The notes beneath the pieces were generated by a model. It searched no databases, was not told where the DNA came from, and was given only the letters and a program-made list of their open reading frames with translations. A DNA stretch of 64,000 nt, taken from assembly GCA_046484285.1 (NCBI GenBank), contig JAWOBP010000156.1:2518-66517 (forward strand), written 5' to 3'. This document shows positions 2,676-38,931 of the stretch, piece by piece (positions within the stretch are counted from its first letter, which is position 1; every line of letters begins with the position of its first letter). The DNA comes from Polyangia bacterium. GTDB lineage: Bacteria; Myxococcota_A; Polyangia; JAAYKL01. A program made the translations under genes and the position numbers.

Positions 2676-3627
2676 CGTGAGTGCCGCCGCGGCCGTCGAG
2701 AGCGTCCGCCAGTGTCGCCGGGCTGGTGATGATCGCGCGGCGCCCTCCGCTGTCGAGGAACTCGCAGACCGCCTGGACCTTGGGCCCCATGCTCCCGGCC
2801 GGGAACTCGCCCTCTTCGTAGCACTGCCACAGCTCGTCGGAGGTGATCGCGCCGATCGGGCGCTGCTCGTCGGTGCCGTACTTGCGGTAGACGTGCGGCA
2901 CCTCGGTCAGGATCACGAAGATCTCGGCCTCGATCTGCGTGGCCAGGATCGACGAGGTCAGGTCCTTGTCGATCACCGCCTCGACTCCCTCATAGCTGGC
3001 GTCCTCCTTCTTGATCACCGGGATTCCGCCGCCGCCGGCCGCGATCACCACGTGCCCGGCCTTGGCCGACTCGCGGATCATGTGGCGCTGGATGACCTTG
3101 TAGGGCCGCGGCGAGGGCACCACCCGGCGCCAGCCGCGCCCCGAGTCCTCGACGATCTTCCAGCCGAGCTCGTCGCGGCGGCGCCTGGCCTCGGCCTCCT
3201 CGAGAAAGGCTCCGACCGGCTTGGTCGGCCGCTGGAACGCGCTGTCCGCCGGATCGACCAGCACCTGCGTGATCACGGTCACCACGTACTTGTGGATCCG
3301 GCGGCGCCTCAGCTCGTTGAGCATCGCCTGTTGCAGGAAGTAGCCGAGGCTGCCCTCGGTCTCCGCGACCAGCACGTCCATCGGCATCTTGGGCACCGAC
3401 TCGTCCCCGGTCTCGTTGAGGTTGAGCAGGTAGCCCACCTGCGGACCGTTGCCGTGTGTGATCACCACGTTGAACCCGCGCTCGATCAGAACCTGCAAGA
3501 CGCTGCAGATGCGCGCCGCGTTCTTCTCCTGGATCTCGACGGTCCCCTGCTCGCCGCGCTGCATGAATGCGTGGCCGCCGAGGGCCACCAGCACCGTCTG
3601 GTCTTCCCGCTCTCGCTTGTCGTTCAT
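2659..3627 (-). CDS. arcC: carbamate kinase
   Basis: LVALGGHAF... and GNGPQVG motifs, ~320 aa, full-length similarity pattern to carbamate kinases; start chosen at MNDKRER (ATG 3625-3627) rather than ORF-track 3642. Confidence 0.85.
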   Translation of the reverse strand: MNDKREREDQTVLVALGGHAFMQRGEQGTVEIQEKNAARICSVLQVLIERGFNVVITHGNGPQVGYLLNLNETGDESVPKMPMDVLVAETEGSLGYFLQQAMLNELRRRRIHKYVVTVITQVLVDPADSAFQRPTKPVGAFLEEAEARRRRDELGWKIVEDSGRGWRRVVPSPRPYKVIQRHMIRESAKAGHVVIAAGGGGIPVIKKEDASYEGVEAVIDKDLTSSILATQIEAEIFVILTEVPHVYRKYGTDEQRPIGAITSDELWQCYEEGEFPAGSMGPKVQAVCEFLDSGGRRAIITSPATLADALDGRGGTHVIGAC

Positions 3628-3742
3628 CTCGCCCTCTCGCATCGTAGTGTCTTCACAGCAAAAGGAAGCTCAGCTTCGATCTAGCCGGCGGACAGGCCCG
3701 GAATCAAGCGCGAAAACGCAAAGCGAGCGCAAGGCGCAAACG

Positions 3743-5275
3743 CTACTCGAGGTATCCCAGCATCTCGAGCTGTTTCAGCAGCCGCGGGTCGAGGCGCTCG
3801 CGCTTCTGCTCAGACCAGCGGCGCAGCTCGACTTCGAATGCGCGCTCTTTTTCCAACAGCTCCCGCGCGCGGCTCTCCATCCGCTCGACCACGTCTTCGT
3901 TCTCGGCGGAGAGGTTGTCGCTCTCGCGCGGGTCTCCGCTCCTGGAGAACAGCCAGCTCGAGACTCCCCCGAACGACTCGTTGGTGTAGGTGTAGGCGTC
4001 GGTCAGCAGGCGCACCTCTCCGAGCGGATCGCCGAAGCTGACCAGCGGCGGATCGTAGCCCGCGCCTTCGCCGACGGTCCCCAGAAACGAGACTCCCTGC
4101 ACGGGGTGCTCGATCCGGACGTCGAGATAGTCGAGGACAGTGGGCAGCACGTCCATGGTGCGTACCGGCCGCTCGACCACCCGCGGCTCGATCCCGGAGC
4201 CCCGGGGAAAGCGAATCAACAGCGGAACGCGCAGGTGCTCGACGAACAGGCGGCCGTGCTCCCGCCCGCCGTGCTCGCCGAACTCCTCGCCGTGATCGGA
4301 GAGCAGGACCACCAGCGTCTCGCCCGAGACGCCCTCCTCCTCCAGCAGGTCGAGCACCTCGCCGAAGAGGTGGTCGGAGTAGCGCACTCCGGCGTCGTAC
4401 ATCGCCACGATGTGCTCGCGGTGCTCGCGACGGGAGAGATCCACGCCCTTCCAGAAGCTCTTCAGCTCGTGGCCGAACAGCTTCTGCATCAGCAGAACCT
4501 TGTTGCGCGAAGAGCGGATCTTCTCCAGCTCGTCGACGACCGTCCAGCGCTTCTCGTCCGGGATTCCGTCCGGCAAGCCCTCGGCGCGTCTGCCTTCCAG
4601 CAAAGGGCGCAGGTGAGCCTGCGGCGCCGAGATGTACGGTGCGTGGCAGACGTAGTGGTGGAGAAACAAGAAGAACGGCCGGTTCCTGTCGCCGGCCAGC
4701 CGGATCCAGTGGCGCAGCGAATCCAGGTCGCCGGAATCGCGGAAGACATCCAGCCAATTGTAGGAAATCAGGTCCTGCGAGTACAAATCGAAGCCACGAT
4801 CGAAACCGAAGCTCTTTGAGACGTTGCCCCCGCCGTGGAAGCCGGCGTTCAGGTAGCCGTGCTCGGCGAACGTCTCGGTCAGTGGCGGAATCGCCGGATC
4901 GACCGCGCGTAAAGCGTGCCGCCCGCCCATGTTGCGCACCTTGTGCACCGCCGGCGTGGTCGCGGTGAAGATCGACATGTGGGCCGGCGCGGTCGAGGGC
5001 GCCTGGCTGATCGCGTGAGTGAAGCGGACGGACTCCTCGGCGAAGGCGTCGATGCGCGGAGACACCTCGCGCTCGTAGCCGTAGGCTCCCAGGTGGTCGG
5101 CGCGCAGCGTGTCGATCGAGAACAGCAGCACGTTGGGCGCCTTCTCGGCGGTCCGCTCGGGCCTCGCCCGGCGCAGGGGATCGGACGTCTCGCCGTCGTC
5201 TTTCGGCTCGGAGCCGCAGGCCGCCTGGAGAAAAAGCGCGGCGAGAAAGAAAAGAGCTGTGACCTGCGGGCTCAT
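3743..5275 (-). CDS. sulfatase-like (alkaline-phosphatase superfamily) lipoprotein, non-canonical active-site motif
   Basis: Start MSPQVTALFFLAALFLQAACGS (lipobox) at aa 71 of ORF 3743..5485; LLFSIDTLRADHLGAYGY metal-binding N-terminus of sulfatase/AP fold; motif SQAPSTAPAH instead of C/S-x-P-x-R; C-terminal ...LGYLE tail shared with paralog at 16790..18316. Confidence 0.8.
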   Translation of the reverse strand: MSPQVTALFFLAALFLQAACGSEPKDDGETSDPLRRARPERTAEKAPNVLLFSIDTLRADHLGAYGYEREVSPRIDAFAEESVRFTHAISQAPSTAPAHMSIFTATTPAVHKVRNMGGRHALRAVDPAIPPLTETFAEHGYLNAGFHGGGNVSKSFGFDRGFDLYSQDLISYNWLDVFRDSGDLDSLRHWIRLAGDRNRPFFLFLHHYVCHAPYISAPQAHLRPLLEGRRAEGLPDGIPDEKRWTVVDELEKIRSSRNKVLLMQKLFGHELKSFWKGVDLSRREHREHIVAMYDAGVRYSDHLFGEVLDLLEEEGVSGETLVVLLSDHGEEFGEHGGREHGRLFVEHLRVPLLIRFPRGSGIEPRVVERPVRTMDVLPTVLDYLDVRIEHPVQGVSFLGTVGEGAGYDPPLVSFGDPLGEVRLLTDAYTYTNESFGGVSSWLFSRSGDPRESDNLSAENEDVVERMESRARELLEKERAFEVELRRWSEQKRERLDPRLLKQLEMLGYLE

Positions 5276-18903: not shown

Positions 18904-21702
18904 ATGTCCAAGAAATATCTTTTCGTATTTGCTGTTTTCGCGGCTTGCTGGTCGCTGACCGGCTGGGGCTGCGATTCGAGCGGATCGGGGGGCTCCTCGG
19001 GCGACGCCGACACCGATGCCGACGCGGACGCCGATTCCGATGCCGACGCGGACGCCGATTCCGATACGGATGCCGACAGCGATGGCGACACGGACGCCGA
19101 CTCGGACGCCGACAGCGACGCCGACTCGGACGCCGACAGCGACGCCGACTCGGACACGGACTCCGATTCGGACACGGACATGCAGCAGACCGATTTTTGC
19201 AACGAGGACGGCTGGTGCTTCGAGAATCCCACCCCGCACGGCAACACGCTGCGCAGCGTCTGGATCAACTCAGCGAGCGACGTCTGGATGACCAGCGAGA
19301 CCGGGCAGGTGCTGCGCTACGACGGCAGCGACTGGTACGAGTGGCGCTCCGGAGAGTGGGGCGAGGTCTTCACCGCCCTGTGGGGCACCGCTCAGTCGAA
19401 CATGTTCGCGCTGAGCAGCAATCGGCTGATGCACTGGAACGGGAGCGGTTGGTCGGCGGTCTTCACCGACTACGGGCTGACCGCCGTGTTCGGTTTCGGC
19501 AGCGACGACATCTGGGTCACCAGCTACTATGGCGCCCACCACTGGGACGGCACGAGCTGGGAGGAGCACGAGCTGCCGGATTCGTACCTGGCGACCGTGT
19601 TCGGCGTCGCCACGGACGACGTCTGGCTCGGCGGGCAAAACGGCGTTCTCTACCACTGGAACGGCAGCGAGCTCGAGGATCGCTCCCTGACCGACGAGAA
19701 CCACATCTCCGATATCTGGGGCAGCGCCGCGGACGACGTCTACCTCGCATCGGCCGGCTCGAATTCGCTCTACCACTGGGACGGATCCGAGATGGGCCAG
19801 CTCAATCCCGGGCTGACCGCGAGCGGCTGGTCGAAGATCGCGGGCATCGCGGCCGACGACATCTACCTGCTGGGCTCGGGCAACAGGGTGGGTCATTACG
19901 ACGGATCCTTCTGGAGCGACGTCTCGCCCACGGTCCAGCCCTGGTCGCTGGTGGACATCGACGCCGAGTCGGGCGGCGACGTCTGGCTGGTGGGAGGCTA
20001 CGGGATCTTCTGCCAACGGGACGGGGGCGGCTGGGCGTGCAGCGACGCGCTGACCTACGAGAACCTGCAGAGCGTGGGAGGCAGCGCGGCCGACGATCTG
20101 ACGGCCTGCTCCGGCTGGGGCGTGATCGCGGAGCGCGGCTCGGGAGGCTGGAGCACCAATCAGGTCGCGGTTCCGACCTACCTTTCCGACGTCTGGCACA
20201 CGGGCGACGGGGTATTCTGGGGCTATTCCAGCAACACCTACACCGACGAGCTGCTCTTCTATCGCTACGACGGATCGGCGTGGAGCGAGTCGACGGTCGA
20301 AGCGCCGAGCGGGATGCACGCGGTCTGGGCCGGAGACGACGGCAGCGCCTGGGTGGCCGGTCTCGGCGGGCGGGCCTGCCGCTTCGACGGCGCGAGCTGG
20401 AGCTGCGACGCGACCGGGACGACCAAGGATCTGCAAGCCGTCTTCTCGGTGGACGGCGAGGTCTTCGCCGCCGGCCAGGACGGCGCCGTGGCTCACCACG
20501 ACGGAACGGGCTGGTCGCCGCAGGCGAGCAACGTGGACGACGACCTCCGCGCGGTCTGGGGCGCGAGCGCCGACGACGTCTGGGTCGTGGGACACCACGG
20601 CAACGCGGCGCATTTCGACGGCACGGCGTGGACGGCGGTCGATATCTCCAGCTCCTACGATCTCAACGACCTGTGGGGCTTCGCTTCGGACGACGTGTGG
20701 GCCGTGGGCTACAGCGGCGACGCCTTCCACTGGGACGGAGTCGAGTGGACCGAGGTGGAGACGCCGATCTACGACGAGATCTACTCCATCTGGGGCGCGA
20801 CGAGCGACGACGTCTGGGCGGTGTCCGACTGGGGCGGCCTGATCCACTGGGACGGGACGGAATGGAGCGAGGACACCAGCCTCGAGGACTGGGACATGAT
20901 GGCGGTTGCGGGCACCGCCTCCGACGATGTCTGGATCGTCGGCTGGCACGGAACCATGTACCACTACAACGGCTCGGCGTGGAGCGAGGTCAGCAACATG
21001 CTGACCGAGGATTCGCTCTACATGGAAGACATCACCGCCGGCGGAGGCGAGCTGTGGGTCGTCGACTGGGACGACCAGATCTACGCCCGCAAGAACGGCG
21101 CCTGGTCGATCCAGGTGCTGGCCGAGGAGGACGAGGCGCAGGTGACCGGGATCTGGGCCGCAGGACCGGACGACGCCTGGGCCGCGCTTCACCAGGGGAT
21201 GCTGCTGCGCTGGGACGGCGTCGAGTGGCGGCTCTACTCCAGCAGCGGGGCGTCGCGGCTGGACGCGATCCACGGCGCGGGCAGCGACCAGGTCTGGGCG
21301 ATCGGAGACGCCCTGATCGCCTGGGACGGCAGCGCCTGGACGCGGCTGGCCGACGTCTCGACTCAGAGCGAGAACGCCGATTTCGCCGGCATCTACGGGA
21401 CGTCCAGCAGCGAGCTGCGCGCTCTGCTGGAGAACGGAACGCTCTACTCATGGGACGGCTCCTCGTTCGCCCAGCAGTTCACGGTCGACTGGTACAACAT
21501 CTACATGGACGTGACCTGGCTGGGGCTCGACGAGCTGTGGGCCGTGGGCAGCGGCGGCGCTGTGCTGCACTGGGACGGCGTCTCGGTCGAGCTGCCGGCG
21601 AGGCTGACGAGCAACACGCTCTACGGAGTCACTTCGATTCCGGCCGGAGACCTGTTCGCCGTCGGACTGGGCGGCACGATTCTGCACCGCCTGCCGCAGT
21701 GA
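18904..21702 (+). CDS. large repeat lipoprotein: post-lipobox poly(Asp-Ser/Ala/Thr) tether + ~18 tandem Trp-rich beta-propeller-like repeats
   Basis: CAAGGAG RBS; [23 protein letters not shown] lipobox; 60-aa [27 protein letters not shown]... linker; then ~45-aa units with consensus [13 protein letters not shown]...HWDG..W (Ycf48/BNR-like blades). Confidence 0.8.
18997..19185 (+). repeat. imperfect 6/12-bp coding tandem repeat (GAC-RCS-GAY-KCS)n encoding the acidic tether
   Basis: Seen directly: gacgccgacaccgatgccgacgcggacgccgattccgat...gacagcgacgccgactcggacgcc... Confidence 0.7.
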
Positions 21703-21739: not shown

Positions 21740-22669
21740 ATGATCGGCAAGCTGCGAATCGCCCTGCTGGCCGCCGGGCTGGTCGCCGTCTCGGGCTGCG
21801 AGTCGGCCGGCGGCGCCAGCTCCGGCTCCGATGCCGACGCCGACGCGGACGGCGATAGCGACGGCGATAGCGACGGCGACAGCGACGCAGATTCGGACTC
21901 GGACCAGGAGTGCACGGACGGGGCCGCGATCTGCGCTGACGACTACACCGCGCAGACCTGCATCGGCGGGGAGTGGGTCGTCACCGACGAGTGTAACCCC
22001 GAGACCCAGATGTGCGTGGGCGGCGTCTGCGCCGACTGCGTGGACATCGAGTTCTCGATCCAGACCCAGCAGGCCTGCGCGATCTCGATCCTGGACGGTT
22101 ACGAGATGGACGGTGAGGGCTTCATCGAGCTGTACGGCGAGCAGTACCGCGTCTTCGCCATGGATCGCTGGGGCGAGGGGCACATCATCGCCTGGGCCGA
22201 CTCGACGACCACCGGCGAGCTGCTCGAGGCGTTCAACGTGACCGGCTACCTGGGCCAGATGGACGATCCGACCGTGGTCTCGTTCGGCGACAACTACCTG
22301 TGCAACCCGGACGGGCTGGACGGCTACATGCCTGACTACGTGCAGTACCTGGGCGAGGATCTTCCGGCCGCCTACCTGCAGAACGCCGCGCAGATGGCCA
22401 GTGATTTCGACGTGCTGATCTTCTGCGGGTTCCGCATTCCGTGGAGCAACGACTGGGCCGACGAGATTGCCGAGTTCGTCTCCCAGCACGGCAAGGGCTT
22501 CTTGGCGGTGATGGACTACGAGGGCGTGGTGGTGGCCGAGGATTTCACCAACATGAGCGCGATCACCTCCCAGGCCGGGATCGTGTTCGATCCGCTCAAC
22601 CTGGATTGGGCGCCGACCTCGGTCTCGGTTCAGCTGGAGTGCGTGCCCGACGTGCCTCCGGTCGAGTAG
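21740..22669 (+). CDS. hypothetical lipoprotein with acidic (D-S/A/G)n tether
   Basis: ATG at 21740 preceded by AGGAGG; MIGKLRIALLAAGLVAVSGC lipobox; [28 protein letters not shown] linker; Cys-rich globular domain; no family recognised. Confidence 0.6.
   Translation: MIGKLRIALLAAGLVAVSGCESAGGASSGSDADADADGDSDGDSDGDSDADSDSDQECTDGAAICADDYTAQTCIGGEWVVTDECNPETQMCVGGVCADCVDIEFSIQTQQACAISILDGYEMDGEGFIELYGEQYRVFAMDRWGEGHIIAWADSTTTGELLEAFNVTGYLGQMDDPTVVSFGDNYLCNPDGLDGYMPDYVQYLGEDLPAAYLQNAAQMASDFDVLIFCGFRIPWSNDWADEIAEFVSQHGKGFLAVMDYEGVVVAEDFTNMSAITSQAGIVFDPLNLDWAPTSVSVQLECVPDVPPVE
21824..21910 (+). repeat. short coding tandem repeat (GAC/GGC-GAT-AGC)n encoding DADADGDSDGDSDGDSDADSDSD
   Basis: gatgccgacgccgacgcggacggcgatagcgacggcgatagcgacggcgacagcgacgcagattcggactcggac. 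Confidence 0.6.
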
Positions 22670-24174: not shown

Positions 24175-24467
24175 TGGTCAGTTCCTTTGTTTTGAAGACG
24201 GTACGATACTGGACCCTGGATCGGTGCTGTCAATACCGACGTGCAGAGAGGCTCAGCCGAACAGCTCCAGCTGGCGTCGGTTTTCCCCTGTGCCTTGCTT
24301 GCTTCGTCTCCGGCGGCCCGTTCCCGGTCGCAGCCTTTGCTCCAGCTCGCCGCCGGCCGGTCCCAGCGCTGTCATTCCGCCCCGCTGGGGGGAAATGGCC
24401 CATTCCCGGTCGACGATCTGCTCGAATGACACTCCGGCCGTTTTCTCCAATCGGCGCGCGCGGAAGT

Positions 24468-24632
24468 CTAGTGCCTCGTCAACCCGACGATTTCGGGTAC
24501 GGGGCGAGAGATCATCGGCGAGGCCAAGGAACGACGACGAAGGACTGGCGGTGCCAATTCGAGGAGGAGTGACGCAGGGATCGTCGATGAGGGCCGGCCC
24601 GACCCGGCATTGTGGGGTTGACGAGGCGCTAG
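24468..24632. mobile_element. MITE-like element, copy A (IS630/Tc1-type: CTAG target, TA duplication, ~18-bp TIR)
   Basis: 165 bp bounded by CTAG...CTAG; TIR CTAGTGCCTCGTCAACCC / GGGTTGACGAGGCGCTAG; 100 % identical (bar one C) to the inverted copy at 37983..38146; no transposase ORF inside. Confidence 0.6.
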
Positions 24633-25061
24633 GCGGCGAAAGGAGTCGATCTTGTCGCTGTTGCCAATTCGGGCCCGGTCGAGAGCGTCGCGCAGCTCCT
24701 CGATCGTGCGGTCGTAGACGCGAAGCGGGACCGGGTGGGGGTGGCCGTCCTTTCCGCCGTGGGCGAAGGCGAAGCGGGCCGGATCGTCGAAGCGGGACGG
24801 AGCACCGCAGGCGACCTCGGAGGCGACCTCGGCGACCAGGGCCAGCGCCTGCATCGTACGCGGTCCCAGGCCCTCGGTCAGCAGCAGCGATTCGAAGTCG
24901 CGGCCGTCGGTCGCGACGAAGCCGTGCAGGTAGAGCGAGAAGCCGTCCTGGACTGCGGTGTTGTCCACCTTGGCCGTCAAGCGCGAGGCGCGCACCAGCG
25001 CTTCTCAGTCGAGCCCGGTGCGCTCGGCCGTGGCCAGCAGCTCGGCTGGTGTGGGATACAT
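24633..25061 (-). pseudogene. disrupted gene X (unknown family): in-frame TGA plus MITE insertion at 3' end
   Basis: Minus-strand ATG at 25059-61 gives MYPTPAELLATAERTGLD-TGA-EALVRASRLTAKVDNTAVQDGFSLYLHGFVATDGRDFESLL... (high GC3, protein-like); in-frame TGA at about 25005-07; reading frame then runs into MITE copy A and stops at its terminal CTAG. Confidence 0.3.
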
Positions 25062-25110
25062 GATCCACTCGGGGGGTACATGGATCGAGTTGATATCATT
25101 GTTTTTTTTC
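25061..25110. repeat. direct repeat DR-L flanking VapBC cassette
   Basis: TGATCCACTCGGGGGGTACATGGATCGAGTTGATATCATT + T-run; 38/40 identical to DR-R at 25875..25925; contains palindrome GATCCA-N13-TGGATC; begins exactly at the start codon of gene X. Confidence 0.7.
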
Positions 25111-25126
25111 TTGTATCGTTTTTTCC

Positions 25127-25180
25127 TTGACACTCACCGCGAGATATTCACACTATAATTGTGTGCACTAAAGTAGTGCA
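25127..25180 (+). promoter_or_regulatory. AT-rich promoter/operator region of vapB1-vapC1 (TTGACA ... TATAAT hexamers; TGCACTA-N3-TAGTGCA operator)
   Basis: Perfect TTGACA (25127-32) and TATAAT (25154-59) but 21-nt spacer; perfect 7-bp inverted repeat TGCACTAaagTAGTGCA at 25164-80, 14 nt before the AGAGG RBS of the antitoxin gene. Confidence 0.45.
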
Positions 25181-25194
25181 ATAGAGGTCCGCCG

Positions 25195-25413
25195 ATGAAA
25201 AACATAACCCTCAGCGCCGAAGAAGAGCTCATCGAGCGTTCCCGCCTGCGGGCCCGGCAGGAGAAGACCACCTTGAACGCGGTCTTCCGCAGGTGGCTCG
25301 CCAGGTATGCCCTCGGCGAGGACGCCGCGGCATCCTACCGCGATCTAATGAAGGATCTCTCCTATTCCAGCGCCGGTCGTCGCTTCACGCGCGAAGAGCT
25401 GAACGAGCGATAG
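25195..25413 (+). CDS. antitoxin, ribbon-helix-helix/VapB-like
   Basis: 72 aa, ...TLNAVFRRWLARYALGED... DNA-binding antitoxin-like; sits 9 nt upstream of a PIN toxin; lower GC than surroundings. Confidence 0.65.
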   Translation: MKNITLSAEEELIERSRLRARQEKTTLNAVFRRWLARYALGEDAAASYRDLMKDLSYSSAGRRFTREELNER

Positions 25414-25422
25414 GAATAGACC

Positions 25423-25893
25423 ATGAACGACAGGTTTTTTCTTGATACGAACATTTTGGTCTACACTTTCGACGAGCGAGAGCCCTCGAAGCGCGCCAAG
25501 GCAAGGCAGCTCGTGGAGCGCGCTCTCGAGAGCGGCCGGGGTGTGATCAGCTACCAGGTGCTCCAGGAGTTTCTCAACGTGTCGGTGCGCAAGTTCTCAC
25601 GACCGCTGAGATTCGCCGACCGAATCCGCTATCTCGAGACCGTGCTCTCGCCCCTTTGCGAGGTGTTTCCGTCCGAGGCCTTTTACCGCCGCGGGATCGA
25701 GATCGAACAGCGATACGGCTTCGGGTTCTACGATTCGCTGATAATCGCCGGCGCGCTGGCGGCCGGGGCAGCGACCCTCTGCTCCGAAGACTTTCAGGAT
25801 GGCCAGCGCATCGAAAGCACAACCATCGCCAACCCTTTTTCTGACCCCTCTGATCCGCTCTCTGATCCACTCTCTGATCCACTCGGGGGGTGA
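25423..25893 (+). CDS. vapC: PIN-domain toxin VapC
   Basis: FLDTNILVY (first acidic residue), YDSLIIAGA, LCSEDFQD motifs of PIN/VapC; C-terminal SDPSDPLSDPLSDPLGG tail is encoded by the 12-bp tandem repeats/DR-R (stop codon inside DR-R). Confidence 0.8.
   Translation: MNDRFFLDTNILVYTFDEREPSKRAKARQLVERALESGRGVISYQVLQEFLNVSVRKFSRPLRFADRIRYLETVLSPLCEVFPSEAFYRRGIEIEQRYGFGFYDSLIIAGALAAGAATLCSEDFQDGQRIESTTIANPFSDPSDPLSDPLSDPLGG
25849..25884. repeat. three tandem 12-bp units TCTGATCC(G/A)CTC
   Basis: tctgatccgctc tctgatccactc tctgatccactc immediately 5' of DR-R; inverted partial copy (TGGATCGAG) 10 nt downstream. Confidence 0.6.
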
Positions 25894-25925
25894 ATGGATC
25901 GAGTTGATATCATTTGTTTTTATTG
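25875..25925. repeat. direct repeat DR-R flanking VapBC cassette
   Basis: TGATCCACTCGGGGGGTGAATGGATCGAGTTGATATCATT + T-run; contains stop codons of vapC1 (25891-93, plus strand) and of the eIF-2B-like gene (25910-12, minus strand). Confidence 0.7.
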
Positions 25926-26818
25926 GAGCGCAGCTCGGCTCGCCGCCGCGCGATCTCGGCTCCTGCCCGGCCGGCCCTGCTCGCTGTCAGGCGGCCGGTC
26001 TCGGTCAGCACGGCACCCAGCAGGTCGGGCGGCGTCACGTCGAACAGCGGGCAGCTCACCCGCGCTCCGGGCGGCGATTCTCCGGCCAGGTCCGCCGGAT
26101 GCTCCTCGATACTCGCCTCCTTGCGCCCGGCCAGCTTCAGCCGCTGGCAGACTGCGTAAAACGGCACTTCGAAGCGCCTCGCGGCCAGCGCCAGCGGAAA
26201 TGTCCCGGCGCGGTTGACCAGCGATCCGTCGGCCAGGATCTGGTCGGCTCCCACCAGCACCGCGTCGGCGCGCTCCACGGCCGCGGGCAGCGCCCCGTCG
26301 GTCGTCAGCTCCACCTCCAGCCCGTTTTCCACCATCCGCCGCGCCGCGCGCCGGCCGTCTCCGAGGCTGTGCCCCTCGCCGATCAGCACCAGCTCCGGCC
26401 TCAGCCTCTCGAGGCAAGCGAGAGCCGTGGCGCTCCACGAGCAGGTGACCGCCGTCCCCACCTCGCCCAGCTCGCAAACGGCCAGGGCCGCGATCCGCTC
26501 GTCGGCTGCGCGGATCAGCTCCAGCTCGTCTCTAGCCGCCCGCTCGAGGGCAGCGCGCGGAGGTGCTCCCGAAAGCACGGCCCGGCGCGCTTCGATCGCG
26601 ACGCGGAACGCCGCGGATCCGACCGCCGCCATCGAGGGCCGCAGATTGTCGATCCGAACAGCAAGGTCGTCGATTGTCGAAAGGGCCTCTCGGCTTTCGC
26701 AGGGCAGATCCCCGGCCGCGATCTCCAGCGTCTCGAGCGCGCAAACCGCCAGCGAGGTCGCGCCGCTGTCCGTGTCGGAGCGGATCGCCTCCAGCAGCTC
26801 TTCGAGCCGGCGGCTCAC
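25910..26818 (-). CDS. eIF-2B alpha/beta/delta-like family protein (MtnA/ribose-bisphosphate isomerase-like)
   Basis: 302 aa with the IF-2B family pattern (…GADQILADGSLVNRAGTFPLALAARRFEVPFYAVC…); 4-nt overlap with upstream NUDIX gene. Confidence 0.65.
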   Translation of the reverse strand: MSRRLEELLEAIRSDTDSGATSLAVCALETLEIAAGDLPCESREALSTIDDLAVRIDNLRPSMAAVGSAAFRVAIEARRAVLSGAPPRAALERAARDELELIRAADERIAALAVCELGEVGTAVTCSWSATALACLERLRPELVLIGEGHSLGDGRRAARRMVENGLEVELTTDGALPAAVERADAVLVGADQILADGSLVNRAGTFPLALAARRFEVPFYAVCQRLKLAGRKEASIEEHPADLAGESPPGARVSCPLFDVTPPDLLGAVLTETGRLTASRAGRAGAEIARRRAELRSNKNK

Positions 26819-27228
26819 GGCGCGACCCTCCGCCAGGCCTCGCCGAGCGCTGGCACGGTCTCGAGCCGGTCGATCTCGCGCGGTTCGGCCCAGCGCAGCT
26901 CGACGTGCTCCCAGTCCAGCCTGGGCTGCGCGCCGGGAGCCAGTCGAAAGCGAAACGGGTGCACGCGCCAGCGACGCCCCAGCTCCTCGTCGAGCACCTC
27001 CAGCGGATCGCCGCTGCGCTCCAGCTCGATCTGCTCGCCGGAAAAGCCCAGCTCCTCGAAGATCTCGACCCGCGCCTGGCGCTCGGCCGAGCTCTCTTCC
27101 AGAAAGCCCGATACACCGGCCCAGCGACCCTGGTAGCTGCCCACGTGCGAGGAGCGCCGCAGCAGAAGCACGCGTCCGTCGCGCACGACAAAGGCGGTGA
27201 CCACGTCGGTGGTTTTTTCCGAGCTCAA
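26815..27228 (-). CDS. NUDIX hydrolase
   Basis: Nudix box GRWAGVSGFLEESSAERQARVEIFEELG (Gx5Ex7REuxEExGu). Confidence 0.8.
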   Translation of the reverse strand: MSSEKTTDVVTAFVVRDGRVLLLRRSSHVGSYQGRWAGVSGFLEESSAERQARVEIFEELGFSGEQIELERSGDPLEVLDEELGRRWRVHPFRFRLAPGAQPRLDWEHVELRWAEPREIDRLETVPALGEAWRRVAP

Positions 27229-27235
27229 GGCGCGG

Positions 27236-28516
27236 TCAGTGGGAGGGCTTGCAGACCGACCTGCGCTTTTCGATGTCGGCGCGGGTCACGCCCTGCAGGT
27301 CGCCTTCGAGCGCGTCCCGGTAATGCTGCTGCCCGAGGTCGTAGAGCCTCCGCTCGCAGGCGATGTCGCCCAGGATCACGTGCGCCAGGCTCAGATCGGG
27401 CTTCATCGAGATCGCCTGCTTGAGGTGGCTGCGCGCGCTGGTGTAGCGGCCCAGCCGGAAGTAGGTCTCGCCGGTGTGCAGGTAGACCTTGACCACGCCG
27501 GGCGCCACCGACTTGGCCTTGTCGAGCGCCTCCAGCGCCGCGTCCGAGTCGCCCGATGCGTACTCGATGTCGGCCAGCAACAGGTAGGCGTCGACCAGGT
27601 TCGGCACCTCCTCGATCGCTTTTTCCAGCGGCTCCCTGGCCTCCTCGGGCTTGTTCTGCCCGTAGAGGGCCTCGCCCAGGCCGAGGTAGGCCGTGCCGCG
27701 CTCCTGGTCTCCCTCCAGCGCGGCGCGGAAGGCCTGCTCGGCCGCGGCGAAGTCTCCGCCGGCCAGGTACGCCTCGCCCAGCGCGTGACGCGCCTCGATC
27801 CAGTCCGGGCGAATCGCCAGCGCGATCCCGAGCTGCTCGATCGCCTCGGGACCCTCGCCCAGCACGCGTCCCAGCTCGTAGTGCGCCCGGCAGGACGCCG
27901 GCTCGGTCTCCACCGCGTCGCGCAGCGCCGCGACCGCGCCCTGGTGATCTCCGCTCGCCTCGAGCGCGAGCCCCAGCCCGATCCGGGCCACGTGACCCGC
28001 GCCGGCCGAGATCGCCTCGCGGTAGGCGGCGATCGCCGTCTGGTTGTCGACTCGCCGGCGGTAGGCCTCGCCCATTCCGGTTTTGCCGCGCGCGACATCG
28101 CCCTTTTCGATCACTTTTTCGAATTCGTCGATCGCCCGGGCCGAGCGGTCGAAGGTCAACCACACCCAGCCGGAGCAAACCTGGCCGACGCTGCCGTCAC
28201 GGTTGCGCCGCTCCAATACCCGGCAGGCCCGCTTGGACTTCTCCAGCTTGCCCTTGGCCATCTGGATCTTGGCCAGACCGTAGCGGGCCTCGCCGAACCC
28301 CGCCTCCTCGTCGAGAGCGCGATCGTACAGCTCGCGGGCGCGATCGTGGTCCATCGCCTCCACGTAGAGATGGCCGAGATTCACCAGCTCGCCCGCGTCC
28401 ATGGTCGCCGAACGATCGTCTTTCCCCGCGAGGGGATTGCTCGACTGCTCGGCCAGCGCCCCGCCCGAGACGGTGGTCGCGGCCAGCACCAACAAGCCGA
28501 TCAGCACTTCGCGCAT
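27236..28516 (-). CDS. secreted TPR-repeat protein
   Basis: Start at MREVLIGLLVLAATTVSGGALA (aa 30 of ORF, signal peptide); multiple 34-aa TPR units (AxxxLGxAYxxxGDxxxA). Confidence 0.7.
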   Translation of the reverse strand: MREVLIGLLVLAATTVSGGALAEQSSNPLAGKDDRSATMDAGELVNLGHLYVEAMDHDRARELYDRALDEEAGFGEARYGLAKIQMAKGKLEKSKRACRVLERRNRDGSVGQVCSGWVWLTFDRSARAIDEFEKVIEKGDVARGKTGMGEAYRRRVDNQTAIAAYREAISAGAGHVARIGLGLALEASGDHQGAVAALRDAVETEPASCRAHYELGRVLGEGPEAIEQLGIALAIRPDWIEARHALGEAYLAGGDFAAAEQAFRAALEGDQERGTAYLGLGEALYGQNKPEEAREPLEKAIEEVPNLVDAYLLLADIEYASGDSDAALEALDKAKSVAPGVVKVYLHTGETYFRLGRYTSARSHLKQAISMKPDLSLAHVILGDIACERRLYDLGQQHYRDALEGDLQGVTRADIEKRRSVCKPSH

Positions 28517-28634: not shown

Positions 28635-31600
28635 TTACGTCCCGCCGCCCAAAAGCAGGATGTGATCCACCTCGAAGCGCTCGCCGCCGGCCGAGACCAG
28701 CGAGATCGGCAGCGAGCCGGAGGGCCAGAGACCGGGCTCCAACGAAAAGCGGTATTCCCTCATTGCTCCGCTCAGCTCCGCGGTCGCTGCAAGGCGACCG
28801 TCGATCCGCACCTCGAGCTTTTCCGAGCTGGCGGGGTCATCCCCCAGGTGTCGCGCGCGAACCAACAGCAGGCCGCCTCGATCCGCCATCGCCTCGAAGC
28901 GCAGCTCTGCGCGCGATCCCGAACTGAGGCAGGTGGTGCGTCCCAGGTAGCCGCCGCGCCCCTCGCCGTCTGCGGTGCAGCGCGCCCAACCGGAAACCAG
29001 CGAGGGGGCGCCCCGCGCCAGGTCGGTGCCGAACAGCGGCGCGCGGCCCACCGCTCCAATTCGGACAAGGCTCTCCGCGGTGCACTCCAACTCGGGCTCC
29101 TCCACGAGCAGCCGCAGCAGGCGGGGCGCGGCCCACTCGATCCCGAGCCGTCCCAGCGACTGGACCGCGTAGCAGCGCGTGTCGGTGTGGTCGTCGCTGG
29201 CCAGCACGTCGAGCAGCACGGCGCCGGCCCGCGGATCGCCGAGCAGGCCCAGCGCCTTGACCGTCCGGTAGCGGGTGCGGTTGTCGTCCAGCAGGTCGAC
29301 CAGCGGCTCGAAGGCCCGCCTGTCACCGAGGCGGCCCAGGTGGCGAATCGCGGCGGTGCGCAGCTCGAGATCGCCGCGGTGCAGGGCCTCGATCAGGGCG
29401 GGGACCGCGGCCGTGTCGCCGAGGTTCGCCAGCGCCAGCGCCGCCCGATCCCGCCTGGACGTCTCCCGGGAGCCGAGCGCCTCGCGCAGCACGCGAGCCC
29501 CGCGCGAGCTGCCCAGCCGACCGAGCGCCACCGCGGCCGCCAGCGCCACGTCGCGATCCCCGTCGCCGAGCAGCTCTGCGATCTCACCTGTCTTCTTTCG
29601 CACGCCGATCTCGCCGACGAGCTCGAGCGCTTCGCAGCGATCCCGGCTTTGCGCCTCGACGTCGCGCGCCACGTCGAGCAGCGTCGGCACGGCCCGCGGA
29701 TCGCGCAGGCGGCCGAGACGGAGCGCCCGTCGCGTCCGGTCCGCGGCGGCGGCGATCCCGTCGATCCAGACGCGGATCTCGTCGAGCAGCTCGGCGCCGA
29801 CATCCGGCTCTCGGTCGTAGAGGTTGCGCTTCTCGCCCGGATCCGAGCCGAGGTCGTAGAGCTCGAAGAGGCGGCGGGAGGGATCCGATATCAGCTTCCA
29901 GGGCCAGCGCACGGCCATGTGCTGTCGCATCACCGAGGCGAAGACCGGGTGGGGCGTCCGGGGGCTCTGCCCGGAGAGCAGAAACGGACGCAGGTCGCGA
30001 CCCTCCATCCGGGCCGGGACATCGACGCCGACCAGGCGCAGCAGGGTGGGCGCCGTGTCCAGCGTCGAGACCGGCTGCTCCACGAAGCGGGGTTCGGCTC
30101 CGGGAACCCGGATGATCAGCGGCACGCGCACCTGCTCCTCGTAGAGCGAGGAACCGTGGTAATGCCCGCCGTGCTCGCCGAACTCCTCGCCGTGGTCGGC
30201 GGTCAGCACCACGACCGCGTCGCGCGCCAGCTCTTTTTCCACGTGGTCGAGCAAGCGGCCGGCCGCCGCGTCGGCCTCGAAGATCTCGCCTTCGTAGCGC
30301 TCCCGCGGCGAGGTGCCGAAACGCTCCGAGCGGTAGGGCTCGTGGACGTTGAAGAAGTGCACCCAGAGGAAGAAGGCCGGCTCGCCCTGCTCGATGTAGC
30401 TCTCGATCCTGGTGATCGCCAGATCGGCGAGCTTGTCCGGAGACGGAGATCCGTGGTGCACGGACTCGAATCCGAAGCTGCGATCGCGCAGCGAGCCCAC
30501 CCGATCGCCGTGGGTGTGGAAGATCCCGTTGGTGTAGAACGCCGAGCTCTCGTAGCCGGATTCTCCCAGCACGTCGGCCATGGTCGTGGTGCTCGATACG
30601 TCGAGCCCCATCGCCACCTCGTCGTAGAGGTAGCGGGAGGTGTGGAACGATGAGATCGAGTACGAGCTGTGAGGCACCGGGCAGTAGGCGCGCTCGAAGG
30701 CCGTGGCGCGGCTCGCCCACTCGTCGATTCGCGGCGAGGCGGGTCGCTCGTGGTAGCCGTAGACGCCCAGGCGGTCGGCGCGCAACGCGTCGATCGAGAT
30801 GATGATCAGGTGCGCGCCGGGGAAGGTCGGCCAGTCGCCGGAGGATATCACCTCCCGCTCGGCGCGCTCTCGCTCGTAGAGCCTCCGTCGCGCCGCGGTC
30901 GAGGGGCGGCTCTCGGCCGGGGATTTCCCGCTCGCGACAATGCTGGCGACGCGCAGCAGGCTCGAGGTGGTCGCCGTCCGCTCGTGCAGCGCCAGCTTGA
31001 CCGTCTGTCGTTCGTTGCTGGTCCACAGCGCCGCCGCCAGCAGCAGCAAAACCAACGCGGCGGTCCGCGCGGCGGCGATCGCCAGGCGCCCGGTTTCGAC
31101 GCGGCCCAGGCGCGAGATGGCGATTCGCGCTCCCAGCGCCAGCAACCCCAGCGAGCCCAGCGCCAGCGCAGCGTGCAGGTAGTCGTAGAGGCGGCGGTAG
31201 AGGTGTCCGTCACACCAGCGCGCGCCCAGCGCCAGCGCCACCAGCGCCAGCACTGCGGCCAGCCTGGCGCCGCGCGCCGCGTTCGGGCGGTCGAGCCTCG
31301 CGACCAGGGCCAGGACCACGCTCGCAGCGATCCATGTCAGCACCGCCAGGAGCAGCGCTGCCAGCGCGACCAGCAGCCAGCGCGCCGGCAGGCGGGAGGT
31401 CGTTCCACCCTGGAAGAGGCGCACTGCCACGTAGATGCAGGCGGGCAGCGCCAGCACCGTCAGCGCCCAGGACGAGCCGCGCGCGGGGCGGCGACTCCGC
31501 CGCCGCCAAAGCCGGGCGCCCGCCAGCGATCCGACCGACGCCACGAGCGCGATGCACAGGCCGATCGGAGCCAGCCGTCCGGCGGTCTGCAGCAGGAGCA

Positions 31601-32023: not shown

Positions 32024-33214
32024 ATGCGTACATGGTGGGCTATGACTGCAATCGCCGCGCTGCTCCTGGCAGCTTGCGGCGGAGATCCGCCGCCGTTCGA
32101 CGCAGACGCCGGTACGGACGCGGACAGCGACGCGGATTCCGACGCGGACTCCGACGCGGACTCCGACGCGGACTCCGACGCGGACTCCGACGCGGACTCC
32201 GACGCGGACTCCGACGCGGACTCCGACGCGGATTCCGACGCGGATTCCGACGCGGACTCCGACGCGGACTCCGACGCGGACTCCGACGCGGACGCGGATC
32301 AGTGCACCGGAGAGGAGCAGATCGAGCTGCTGGTCGCCGACGCGGAGATAACCGAGCCGATGGAGACCGCCGAGAGCCAGTCGGGCGAGGGCATCTACTG
32401 CCGCACCACGGTCTACGGCGAAGGTCTGGCCGAGTGGTCGGGAGTGCAGATTCCCTGCCAGGGTGACTGGTACGTGCTGGGCCGCGTCTTCGGACAGGCG
32501 CCGGTCGACTCGATGTACCTGACGGTCGAGGATTACGACGAGGTGGTCTGGGATTTCAGCCAGTGCGAGGGGACCCAGTACTGGGACTGGGACTTCGCCT
32601 CCTCCGGGCCGGACGTCGAGGAGTGCTCGGTCGGCGAGATCGAGGATCCGGTGTCGTTCTTCCTGGTGCCCGGGCCGATCGGCGTCGCTCTTCGCGGGCG
32701 CGAGATACCGTCCGAACAGGGATACTCGCCATCGGTGGCCCGCCTCTACCTGGTCACCGATCCCGAGATCGATCCGGACACGATCGGGCTGGGCCTGCTG
32801 GACATCACCGGCCCCGGCGCTGTTCCCGACAACCTGGTCGACATCTACCACCAGGTGGGCGACGTCGGCACGCCGCTCGACACGACGCTGGAGGCCTGGA
32901 TCCGCTGGTCCGGCTCGGTGAGCCCGGACAACGAGGAGGGCTGCGGGCCCTATCCCCCGGACGTGTTCACCGATGCGGTGGCTCTGATTCGCAGGGGCAC
33001 CTGCCAGTTCTCCGACAAGGTCGCCAATGCCGAAGCGGCCGGCGCGGTGGGAGCAGTCGTGCTCAACAATCAGGGCAACGAGATAGTCTACATGACGGGA
33101 GATCCCAACGGTATTCCGGCCACCTTCGTCGGCCAGGACGACGGGCAGGCGATCGTCGACTGGATCCTGGATCACCCCGGCCAGGCCACCGTCGCGATCC
33201 ACCCCATGCCCTGA
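32024..33214 (+). CDS. lipoprotein with (Asp-Ala-Asp-Ser)17 tether and C-terminal PA (protease-associated) domain
   Basis: Start [20 protein letters not shown] (aa 17 of ORF); 68-aa perfect DADS repeat; C-terminal [35 protein letters not shown]...[14 protein letters not shown] is a PA-domain signature. Confidence 0.7.
32117..32300 (+). repeat. near-perfect 12-bp tandem repeat (GCGGAYTCCGAC)~15 encoding (ADSD)n
   Basis: Seen directly: gcggactccgac repeated head-to-tail with only T/C wobble differences; likely prone to slipped-strand length change. Confidence 0.8.
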
Positions 33215-37982: not shown

Positions 37983-38146
37983 CTAGCCCTCGTCAACCCC
38001 ACAATGCCGGGTCGGGCCGGCCCTCATCGACGATCCCTGCGTCACTCCTCCTCGAATTGGCACCGCCAGTCCTTCGTCGTCGTTCCTTGGCCTCGCCGAT
38101 GATCTCTCGCCCCGTACCCGAAATCGTCGGGTTGACGAGGCACTAG
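37983..38146. mobile_element. MITE-like element, copy B (inverted relative to copy A)
   Basis: 164 bp CTAG...CTAG, reverse complement identical to 24468..24632; lies between glutaredoxin-like gene and the vapB2 promoter. Confidence 0.6.
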
Positions 38147-38264: not shown

Positions 38265-38540
38265 ATGCCCACTATCGAGATTCCAGCCGCAGAAGCCAAA
38301 AGGCGCCTGGCCGACTACCTTAGCCGCAGTTCCCACGGTCAGTGCCGCGTGGTGGTCACCCGCCGGGGCAGACCGCTGGCCGCGATCGTCAGCATCGAGG
38401 ACTTGCAGGATCTCGAGCAGCTCGAAAAGCGCCGGGGGCTGGCCTCGGTGGCGGGCAAGTGGAGAGGCTTCGCCGAGATAGCCGCTGATATCGAAGCGGC
38501 CAGGAGCTCCGGCGGCGAAGGTCGCGATGTATCTCTTTGA
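38265..38540 (+). CDS. Phd/YefM-family antitoxin
   Basis: MPTIEIPAAEAKRRLADYLSRSSHGQCRVVVTRRGRPLAAIVSIEDLQDLE = Phd/YefM N-terminal fold; 14-nt overlap with downstream PIN gene. Confidence 0.75.
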   Translation: MPTIEIPAAEAKRRLADYLSRSSHGQCRVVVTRRGRPLAAIVSIEDLQDLEQLEKRRGLASVAGKWRGFAEIAADIEAARSSGGEGRDVSL

Positions 38541-38931
38541 CACCGACGTGCTGACCACCGTGCTCAAGCCGCGTCCTCCCCGGCGCCTGCTCGAGAGGCT
38601 GTCGGATGTTCCGGCCTCTCGGCAGTTCACCAGCACCGTCACCATCAGCGAGATAGTCTACGGCGCGCACAAGAGCGACAGGACCGACCACCATATCCGC
38701 AACCTCGAGCAGGTGCTGCTGCCCGCGGTCAACGTGTTGGATTTCGACGCCGAGGCTGCGTACCTGGCCGGTGCGATTCGAGCCCGGCTCGAAGCGCGCG
38801 GCCTGCCCCTGTCGTTCGCCGACATCCAGATCGCGGCGATCGCCCGCGCCAACGAGCTGACCCTGATCACCGGCAACGAGCGGAACTTTCGCCGGATCGG
38901 GGATCTGCGCGTGGAAAGCTGGCTGGCCTGA
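38527..38931 (+). CDS. vapC: PIN-domain toxin VapC
   Basis: MYLFDTDVLTTVLKPRPP...TISEIVYGA...ADIQIAAIARANELTLITGNERNF PIN motifs. Confidence 0.8.
   Translation: MYLFDTDVLTTVLKPRPPRRLLERLSDVPASRQFTSTVTISEIVYGAHKSDRTDHHIRNLEQVLLPAVNVLDFDAEAAYLAGAIRARLEARGLPLSFADIQIAAIARANELTLITGNERNFRRIGDLRVESWLA

Follow-up and report, generated by a model that had tools for sequence, protein, structure and literature searches.

How a chromosomal toxin-antitoxin (TA) module arrives at a scattered position with neither a transposase nor an integrase to carry it is poorly understood, and the question is raised by a vapBC module in a Polyangia bacterium (GenBank assembly GCA_046484285.1). The DNA analysed here, referred to as the window, is a stretch of 64,000 nt (contig JAWOBP010000156.1, positions 2,518 to 66,517 of the forward strand), and all coordinates are given within it. 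A vapB-like and a vapC gene lie between two direct repeats, DR-L and DR-R, behind the 3' end of a gene for an IF-2B-like protein. An earlier note on this DNA had proposed that a TA cassette was inserted with duplication of a site of about 50 bp, in an event of the attachment-site (att), integron-cassette or IS200/PATE (palindrome-associated transposable element) type. As described below, insertion and duplication are borne out by comparison with related genomes, which provide a base-level view of before and after, the site being empty in two sister species and filled here. The proposed site-specific routes found no such support.

Two related species (contigs L002-L004 and L005-L008) hold the corresponding locus in the order TPR-NUDIX-IF2B-DUF763, with one copy of the site between the last two genes and without a TA module. 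This is the outcome that the earlier note had predicted for the orthologous NUDIX/IF-2B locus. L002 and L005 are sister taxa sharing 95.3% of nucleotides, and each is 90.1% identical to the window. Homology of about 90% continues unbroken from position 29000 down to 25873 when compared to L002, or to 25852 when compared to L005, and the two repeats of the window share a single aligned counterpart in each relative (6894-6946 in L002, 6895-6967 in L005). The presence of a single site copy and the absence of the TA module in two related species indicate that a foreign vapBC was inserted and that about 50 bp of target were duplicated.

A repeat search of the window returned the two copies as a direct-repeat pair of 47 nt with 91% identity (25061-25107 and 25875-25921), blastn aligned them at 92% over 50 nt, and their start-to-start distance is 814 bp. 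When the two variable bases were written as NN, the 40-nt core of the site matched exactly twice in the 64 kb and not once in 100 dinucleotide shuffles, in agreement with the pair as first described. The palindrome GATCCA-N13-TGGATC could likewise be read in both copies, and the stop codons of vapC (25891-25893) and of the IF-2B-like gene (25910-25912) are both contained in DR-R, as had been noted. DR-L and DR-R differ at 4 of 47 positions, every difference falling to one side of the 7-nt spacer of the palindrome. Compared to the single-copy site, DR-L is 90% identical to L002 and 86% to L005; its nearest match is DR-R, with 35 of 37 positions over a 37-nt core (counted from alignment A1), yet it carries the AAG of L002 where DR-R has AAT. 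This combination fits an old duplication within the genome. No Rfam family matched the site and terminator prediction called none there; the fold z-scores were −2.4 and −1.9 for the window copies and around 0 for L002 and L005. Other direct repeats in the window are mainly low-complexity serine/acidic-rich coding repeats common to several large open reading frames (ORFs), at 19000-19180, 21830-21900 and 32100-32300.

Alignment with the relatives allows the anatomy of the event to be read. The native spacer opens with the end of the IF-2B-like reading frame, its final codons and stop, followed by the palindrome with its 9-nt arms and 7-nt spacer, a variable GAGTGGATC-N3-4 array and the start of DUF763. 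In the window, the order from the IF-2B-like gene is DR-R, native 12-mers, vapC, vapB and their promoter in antisense, DR-L, a 9-nt filler and then DUF763 from about nucleotide 312. Beside DR-L, some 368 bp of L002 sequence are gone according to a MAFFT alignment with L002 and L005, a stretch that takes in the array as well as the promoter and the first ~104 codons of DUF763. Contrary to the earlier claim, the insertion was thus not precise between the stop of one gene and the start of the next: the start of DUF763 was lost, a filler was added, the vapC stop was lost and native 12-mers lie inside the repeats. These 12-mers occupy the same place in the relatives, with ~5 units in L005, 1-2 in L002 and 3 in the window.

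The array and the filler each deserve a remark. The GAGTGGATC units of the native IF-2B/DUF763 spacer (window 25848-25903; L005 6935-7000; L002 6935-6965) vary in copy number, are spaced by about one helical turn and include one inverted unit; the array resembles a group of binding sites for a protein in front of DUF763. The inverted hexamers GATACA (25054-25059, in the filler) and TGTATC (25111-25116) bracket DR-L and are paired with each other in the RNA fold. They may be a mark of snap-back or templated synthesis during repair.

The limit of the foreign DNA on the other side is given by VapC itself. In all 28 aligned homologues a conserved NPF motif is followed by 0-12 residues and the C-terminus. 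In the window protein homology stops at ~25838-25841 (..ANPF), and 17 further residues are encoded by native 12-mers; the three 12-nt units do encode the SDP(L) tail of this PIN protein, as first described. Since the window VapC runs past NPF into host 12-mers, the foreign fragment ends at the last conserved codon, with loss of its stop. The foreign DNA extends from ~25111-25127 to ~25841, and vapB and vapC are the only genes between the repeats. DNA homology to the nearest vapBC relatives, L011 and L012 (72-73% on the amino acid level), spans only 25195-25838, together with a similarly built promoter/operator from the −35 box onwards. Both relatives stand in unrelated contexts, without the site and without flanking repeats.

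The interval between the repeats has a GC content of 58% compared to 69% for the window, which confirms it as AT-richer. The promoter hexamers ascribed to it, TTGACA and TATAAT, are both present; they are 21 nt apart, however, and thus do not form a canonical sigma-70 pair, and a consensus promoter scan did not report them. A like layout precedes vapB in L011 (TTGACC-17-TACACT and a CACT..AGTG palindrome), and the position of the perfect 7-N3-7 palindrome at 25166-25182, correctly recognized in the earlier note, is kept there. The vapB-like product matched no named family in Pfam or NCBIfam. A conserved partner of 72-75 amino acids upstream of the PIN gene is also found in L011, L015, L017, L034, L052 and L066. 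Of the acidic residues, D8 and D104 are kept in every one of 28 aligned VapC homologues and E49, E122 and D123 in nearly all; 1047 homologues were found in total, with lengths of 139-151 amino acids. A PIN toxin with its acidic residues and a small antitoxin gene upstream in the same operon are the hallmarks of a type II VapBC module, to which the pair is assigned on its sequence features. The PIN, IF-2B and NUDIX assignments of the earlier note all held in Pfam (Table 1). The 921-bp cassette gave no match to plasmids or phages in a distant blastn search, and no convincing terminal inverted repeats were found at its ends.

Table 1. Features of the vapBC locus and its surroundings in the window.
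Feature	Position	Strand	Description
DUF763 pseudogene remnant ("gene X" of the earlier note)	24253..25051	-	PF05559 6e-29, C-terminal profile positions only
165-bp miniature inverted-repeat transposable element (MITE) inside the DUF763 remnant	24468..24632	.	31-nt inverted ends; not at this position in L002/L005
9-nt filler GGGATACAT	25052..25060	.	joins DR-L to DUF763 codon ~105; its GATACA matches TGTATC (25111-25116) as inverted complement
DR-L	25061..25110	.	ectopic site copy with ~15 nt from the end of the IF-2B-like ORF, the stop and the palindrome (9-nt arms, 7-nt spacer)
vapBC promoter/operator region	25127..25182	+	TTGACA 25127-25132, TATAAT 25154-25159, palindrome TGCACTA-aag-TAGTGCA 25166-25182
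vapB-like antitoxin gene, 72 aa	25195..25413	+	ORF, ends 9 nt before vapC
vapC (PIN) toxin gene	25423..25893	+	PF01850 4e-13, above gathering score
12-nt unit array (TCTGATCCRCTC; minus strand GAGYGGATCAGA)	25848..25884	.	native, 3 units, the last overlapping DR-R; between DR-R and the foreign DNA
DR-R	25875..25925	.	native site copy, contiguous with the IF-2B-like gene; holds the vapC and IF-2B-like stops
IF-2B-like gene, 302 aa	25910..26818	-	PF01008 1.6e-35; last codons in DR-R
NUDIX gene	26815..27228	-	PF00293 7e-10; 4-nt overlap with the IF-2B-like gene; same pair in L002-L008

We favour, with moderate confidence, the explanation that a foreign vapBC was captured behind the IF-2B-like gene by illegitimate, i.e. 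non-site-specific, recombination accompanied by a long target duplication. The captured DNA would have consisted of no more than the promoter/operator of the module, vapB, and a vapC ending with its last conserved codon, and the duplicated target would measure at least 50-58 bp and probably ~100 bp including the 12-mer array. A palindrome with 9-bp arms beside a tandem array may have made the spot prone to breaks or to fork stalling. A staggered break or serial template switching could then account for the joining of the fragment, the double copying of the target and the omission of 368 bp; alternatively, a ~100-bp duplication may have been followed by a separate deletion. The module may have been kept since its loss would be toxic, VapC being a predicted PIN RNase whose activity VapB would counteract; VapB would also act as a repressor of its own operon at the palindromic operator (25166-25182). 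The two repeats could now mediate excision and loss of the module by homologous recombination.

The recurrence of such an arrangement was examined by comparing upstream and downstream flanks of 80 metagenomic loci of this vapBC family and 4 loci fetched earlier, 59 of which were testable. Strong flanking repeats were found in three of them. In L034 the repeat measures 110 nt (95.5% identity) and represents the 3' end of a radical-SAM/BATS gene. In L052 it measures 52 nt (94%) and corresponds to the 3' end of a convergent ABC-F gene, and its ectopic copy precedes the TA promoter, as it does in the window. In L066 it measures 48 nt (98%) and covers tRNA-Met from the anticodon loop to CCA; L067 holds a decayed form of this repeat. 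The true repeat cases score 64-178 bits, compared to at most 28 bits for mismatched flank pairs, with the exception of one pair at 262 bits that presumably reflects shared homology. In a second control, with 155 sliding pseudo-cassettes in the window, the real locus scored 64 bits and the other 154 no more than 34. A 50-nt pair with 72% identity in L015 had marginal support (tblastn E=0.02) and was treated as chance. The four repeat-flanked family members, the window included, have four unrelated repeat sequences. The location of three further loci between long, locus-specific repeats (48-110 nt) indicates that this type of event recurs in the family.

A common feature of three independent loci is the point at which the foreign DNA begins, 14-16 nt upstream of the −35 box: the distance from the end of the upstream repeat to the −35-like hexamer is 16 nt in the window, 15 in L034 and 14 in L052. 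The idea that the repeats themselves reach up to the −35 box was dropped, as flank similarity reached significance in one case only, the left flank of L052 (p ~0.02). One may ask whether the vapBC family acts as a recombinase-less mobile cassette that repeatedly enters behind the 3' ends of genes and tRNAs with target duplications of 50-110 bp. We consider this doubtful. If true, long target duplication would be a general entry route for addiction modules, independent of DNA cleavage by the cargo.

The L066 subgroup has features of its own. A vapBC block of ~0.95 kb (1572-2560 in L066) recurs with 82-95% nucleotide identity in soil metagenomes, where at least 14 contigs carry it between unrelated flanks (also L055, L058, L061, L062, L065, L067, L071-L073, L076, L080, L081, L084 and L085), and a copy of the tRNA-Met 3' half, 48 nt long, is often located at its ends. 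In L071 the block abuts an intact tRNA-Met, in L066 it adjoins a weak integrase-like fragment (Pfam E=0.26), and in L058 and L084 the repeat leads once more into the opening ~80 nt of the block, an arrangement suggestive of an attP or of a tandem copy. An origin of the integrase type is plausible for this subgroup. In L034, the repeats at 1621-1730 and 2563-2672 bracket vapBC, and the DNA beyond the second copy (2700-4417) has a GC content of 56% versus 68% and holds another PIN gene, which suggests that modules accreted at one gene end.

Several observations weigh against capture by illegitimate recombination. The term long target duplication describes an outcome and does not explain it, and a simple model would have to assume one complex event, or else a ~100-bp duplication and, apart from it, the loss of 368 bp. 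The arrangement of the site, two arms around a spacer, is that of a tyrosine-recombinase core, and the search of the bacterium's own genome for recombinases and further site copies covered the 64 kb of the window. Within the family, L098, a relative of L052 with 92% identity, has the same TA module and no ectopic repeat, and no empty site was obtained for L034 or L052. Finally, the repeats of the L066 subgroup are 3' halves of tRNA-Met, a classical att site, which implies that integrase-mediated events do occur in this TA family.

The strongest competitor, which we regard as unlikely, is that the two repeats are attL and attR, created when a tyrosine recombinase used the 3' end of the IF-2B-like gene as its target, the element being either an eroded island or an integrase-less, CIME-like cassette moved in trans. 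The repeat does cover a gene 3' end, it has 9-bp inverted arms around a 7-nt spacer, and the differences between the copies are confined to one side of that spacer. The tRNA-Met halves, the intact tRNA-Met and the weak integrase-like fragment associated with the L066-type block would fit this model, as would the low-GC DNA with another PIN gene beyond the repeat of L034. The foreign DNA of the window also stops exactly at the functional limits of the TA module, as erosion under addiction selection predicts. On the other hand, 12-mers orthologous to those of L002 and L005 lie between DR-R and vapC, where element DNA should start. Native DNA on the TA side of DR-R argues against an att-type crossover, which puts element DNA there, and attP would need to resemble a lineage-specific minisatellite spacer over ~100 bp. 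The four unrelated sequences in the four repeat-flanked family members speak against it as well.

The same model is opposed by the search for mobility functions and further sites. A pattern of the invariant site positions, scanned against genomes of 185,579 species (one each), was found at the orthologous locus only (L009, the contig of L002), apart from a single match inside a coding sequence of an Actinomycetota metagenome-assembled genome (MAG) that was judged to be chance. The site pattern had no match in metagenomes of the Joint Genome Institute (JGI), and two patterns gave none in viral contigs. When 33 ORFs of the window, located between 9.6 and 41.8 kb, were scanned, no recombinase gene was found, in line with the earlier note's statement that the window has none. 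An integrase nearby, a recurring core or attP, and element DNA inside each repeat, which would identify an attL/attR pair, were thus all missing from the material searched.

The scans also bear on the other routes that had been suggested. A multicopy site of the REP (repetitive extragenic palindrome) type was rejected, the hits being confined to the orthologous locus and the one chance match. An integron cassette was rejected as the repeat is host DNA, the nearest GTTGATA does not fit GTTRRRY, no IntI or other integrase was found among the ORFs scanned and no cassette array in the window. For hairpin elements of the IS200/IS605, PATE or REP kind, the site is single-copy in the genome of L002 and absent from the other collections, and neither a Y1 transposase nor a RAYT (REP-associated tyrosine transposase) was found among the ORFs scanned. 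The att-site, integron-cassette and IS200/PATE-like events of the earlier note are accordingly not supported, the repeat occurring at no other cassette boundary in the species genomes, JGI metagenomes, viral contigs, plasmids and phages searched, an outcome that the note itself had named as refuting its reading.

Two further scenarios, both improbable in our view, concern the order of events. In the first, the repeat-flanked TA module is the older state and the lineage of L002 and L005 lost it by recombination between the repeats. As these two are sisters, one loss is as parsimonious as one gain, and 4 differences in 47 repeat positions do not point to a very recent event. The insert has nevertheless kept a GC content of 58% and was not ameliorated towards 69%, the distant relative L014 has neither the site nor the TA module, and the relatives retain the 368 bp that are gone from the window. 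Moreover DR-L duplicates coding sequence and must come from a duplication, so that a loss would alter the timing and not the nature of the event. In the second scenario, to which we attach a similarly low probability, the site was already doubled in the ancestor of the window, for instance through the unstable GAGTGGATC array, and the TA module landed between the copies by chance. The spacer is indeed a variable minisatellite whose copy number differs among relatives, and chance insertion between repeated sequences is a class recognized by Furuta et al. (PMC2853133). DR-L, however, does not consist of array units alone but also takes in the final ~15 nt of the IF-2B-like ORF together with the stop, and two copies were seen in no relative. 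A chimeric join at a short repeat is very improbable, even though the source is a MAG and the independent Logan contig L001 (run SRR31818008) starts inside DR-L: L001 matches the window at 25094-27477 with one mismatch in 2384 nt, including the TA module, the right junction and the T-run specific to DR-L, which shows that module and right junction are no MAG artefact, and the repeat copies differ and cannot represent one collapsed sequence.

Among the neighbouring genes, DUF763 corresponds to the "gene X" of the earlier note, in which DR-L was taken to begin at its ATG and the NUDIX, IF-2B-like and X genes to form an operon split by the insertion. That ATG is fortuitous. Compared to the intact 428-aa gene of L005, the remnant is without its 5' ~312 nt (about the first 104 codons) and promoter, and an in-frame GGA>TGA change (25005-25007) follows 18 codons past the supposed start. 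In addition, ~0.34 kb between imperfect repeats have been deleted internally, 12 nt have been duplicated and a MITE has inserted. DUF763 is a pseudogene in L002 as well, with a TAG and a 1-nt deletion. Given this decay, no working operon was split at a gene boundary.

A second copy of the MITE, 99.4% identical and in opposite orientation, lies at 37983-38146; the terminal inverted repeats measure 25-31 nt, with CTAG at both ends. It adjoins a second TA pair (38266-38931) located between genes for a glutaredoxin and a pyridoxal phosphate (PLP) enzyme, in which a PIN gene (PF01850 7e-17) accompanies an ORF judged by eye to be Phd/YefM-like. This pair was checked as a test of generality and had no long flanking repeats. 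The IF-2B-like protein has orthologues at 86% and 81% (amino acids) and scores far under all NCBIfam equivalog cutoffs. Distant homologues of the NUDIX and IF-2B-like pair are single NUDIX+IF-2B fusion proteins (P0012, P0013 and P0017-P0019), and such fusions suggest a coupled, uncharacterised pathway.

Among known systems, the closest counterpart to capture with a long target duplication is an insertion type described for restriction-modification gene complexes (Nobusato et al. 2000, Gene 259:99; Furuta, Abe & Kobayashi 2010, PMC2853133). The published class comprises small units without mobility genes between direct repeats of more than 30 bp, both of which align to a single-copy sequence in a related genome, and a case from H. 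influenzae has a unique 46-bp repeat with a 15-bp overlap with the 3' end of HI0105 and no mobility genes (PMC2853133). The window locus shows repeats above 30 bp, an insert below 20 kb, alignment of both copies to one sequence in a relative without the insert, no mobility genes between the repeats, and a repeat that is not multicopy (2 in the window, none elsewhere in the collections). Like its counterparts it is a small addiction-type unit with a unique repeat overlapping the neighbour's 3' end. Its cargo, however, is vapBC and not a restriction-modification system, and it is distinguished by the 368-bp deletion with filler and by the lost stop codon of the cargo. The locus thus behaves like the long-target-duplication class and is not a formal member of it. 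Kobayashi and colleagues suggested DNA breakage made by the cargo as the trigger (PMC2853133; PMC3874152). Breakage by a restriction enzyme cannot apply to a type II TA module with an RNase toxin; an RNase toxin cannot cut DNA, yet the signature is the same as for restriction-modification genes, which argues against cargo-made breaks as the cause.

CIMEs are integrase-less elements flanked by att sites. As in CIME-type elements and islands at gene 3' ends, direct repeats that include a gene 3' end here bracket foreign DNA with a stabilising TA module, and the L066-type relatives do have this appearance. Unlike such elements, the window yielded no integrase among the ORFs scanned, no further occurrence of its site turned up, and one of the two repeats has native DNA where element DNA would be expected. 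A ParE/ParD-like TA module of Microcystis aeruginosa PCC 7806 lies between two identical 152-bp direct repeats, each with a 16-bp inverted repeat (PMC7935541). It resembles the window in being a type II pair just past the neighbour's stop with palindrome-bearing direct repeats on both sides; its repeats are identical and three times longer, the TA family is another one, and the abstract and repeat-related passages of that report mention no empty-site comparison, so that target duplication is not evident from them. TA cassettes of superintegrons are likewise compact, promoter-bearing units bounded by structured repeats, whereas the window repeat is host target DNA and not attC, and no GTTRRRY core is present at the boundaries. 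With IS200/IS605, PATE and REP/RAYT elements the locus shares a hairpin-forming sequence at the boundary. Those elements are multicopy and without long target duplication, in contrast to a site that is single-copy in the relatives, where its hairpin is no more stable than shuffled controls. Together, the window and the three repeat-flanked family members provide a small comparative set for confronting break-repair and recombinase models. On present evidence the locus is neither a new kind of mobile element nor a site-specific cassette system; what sets it apart from the known cases of long target duplication is its TA cargo.

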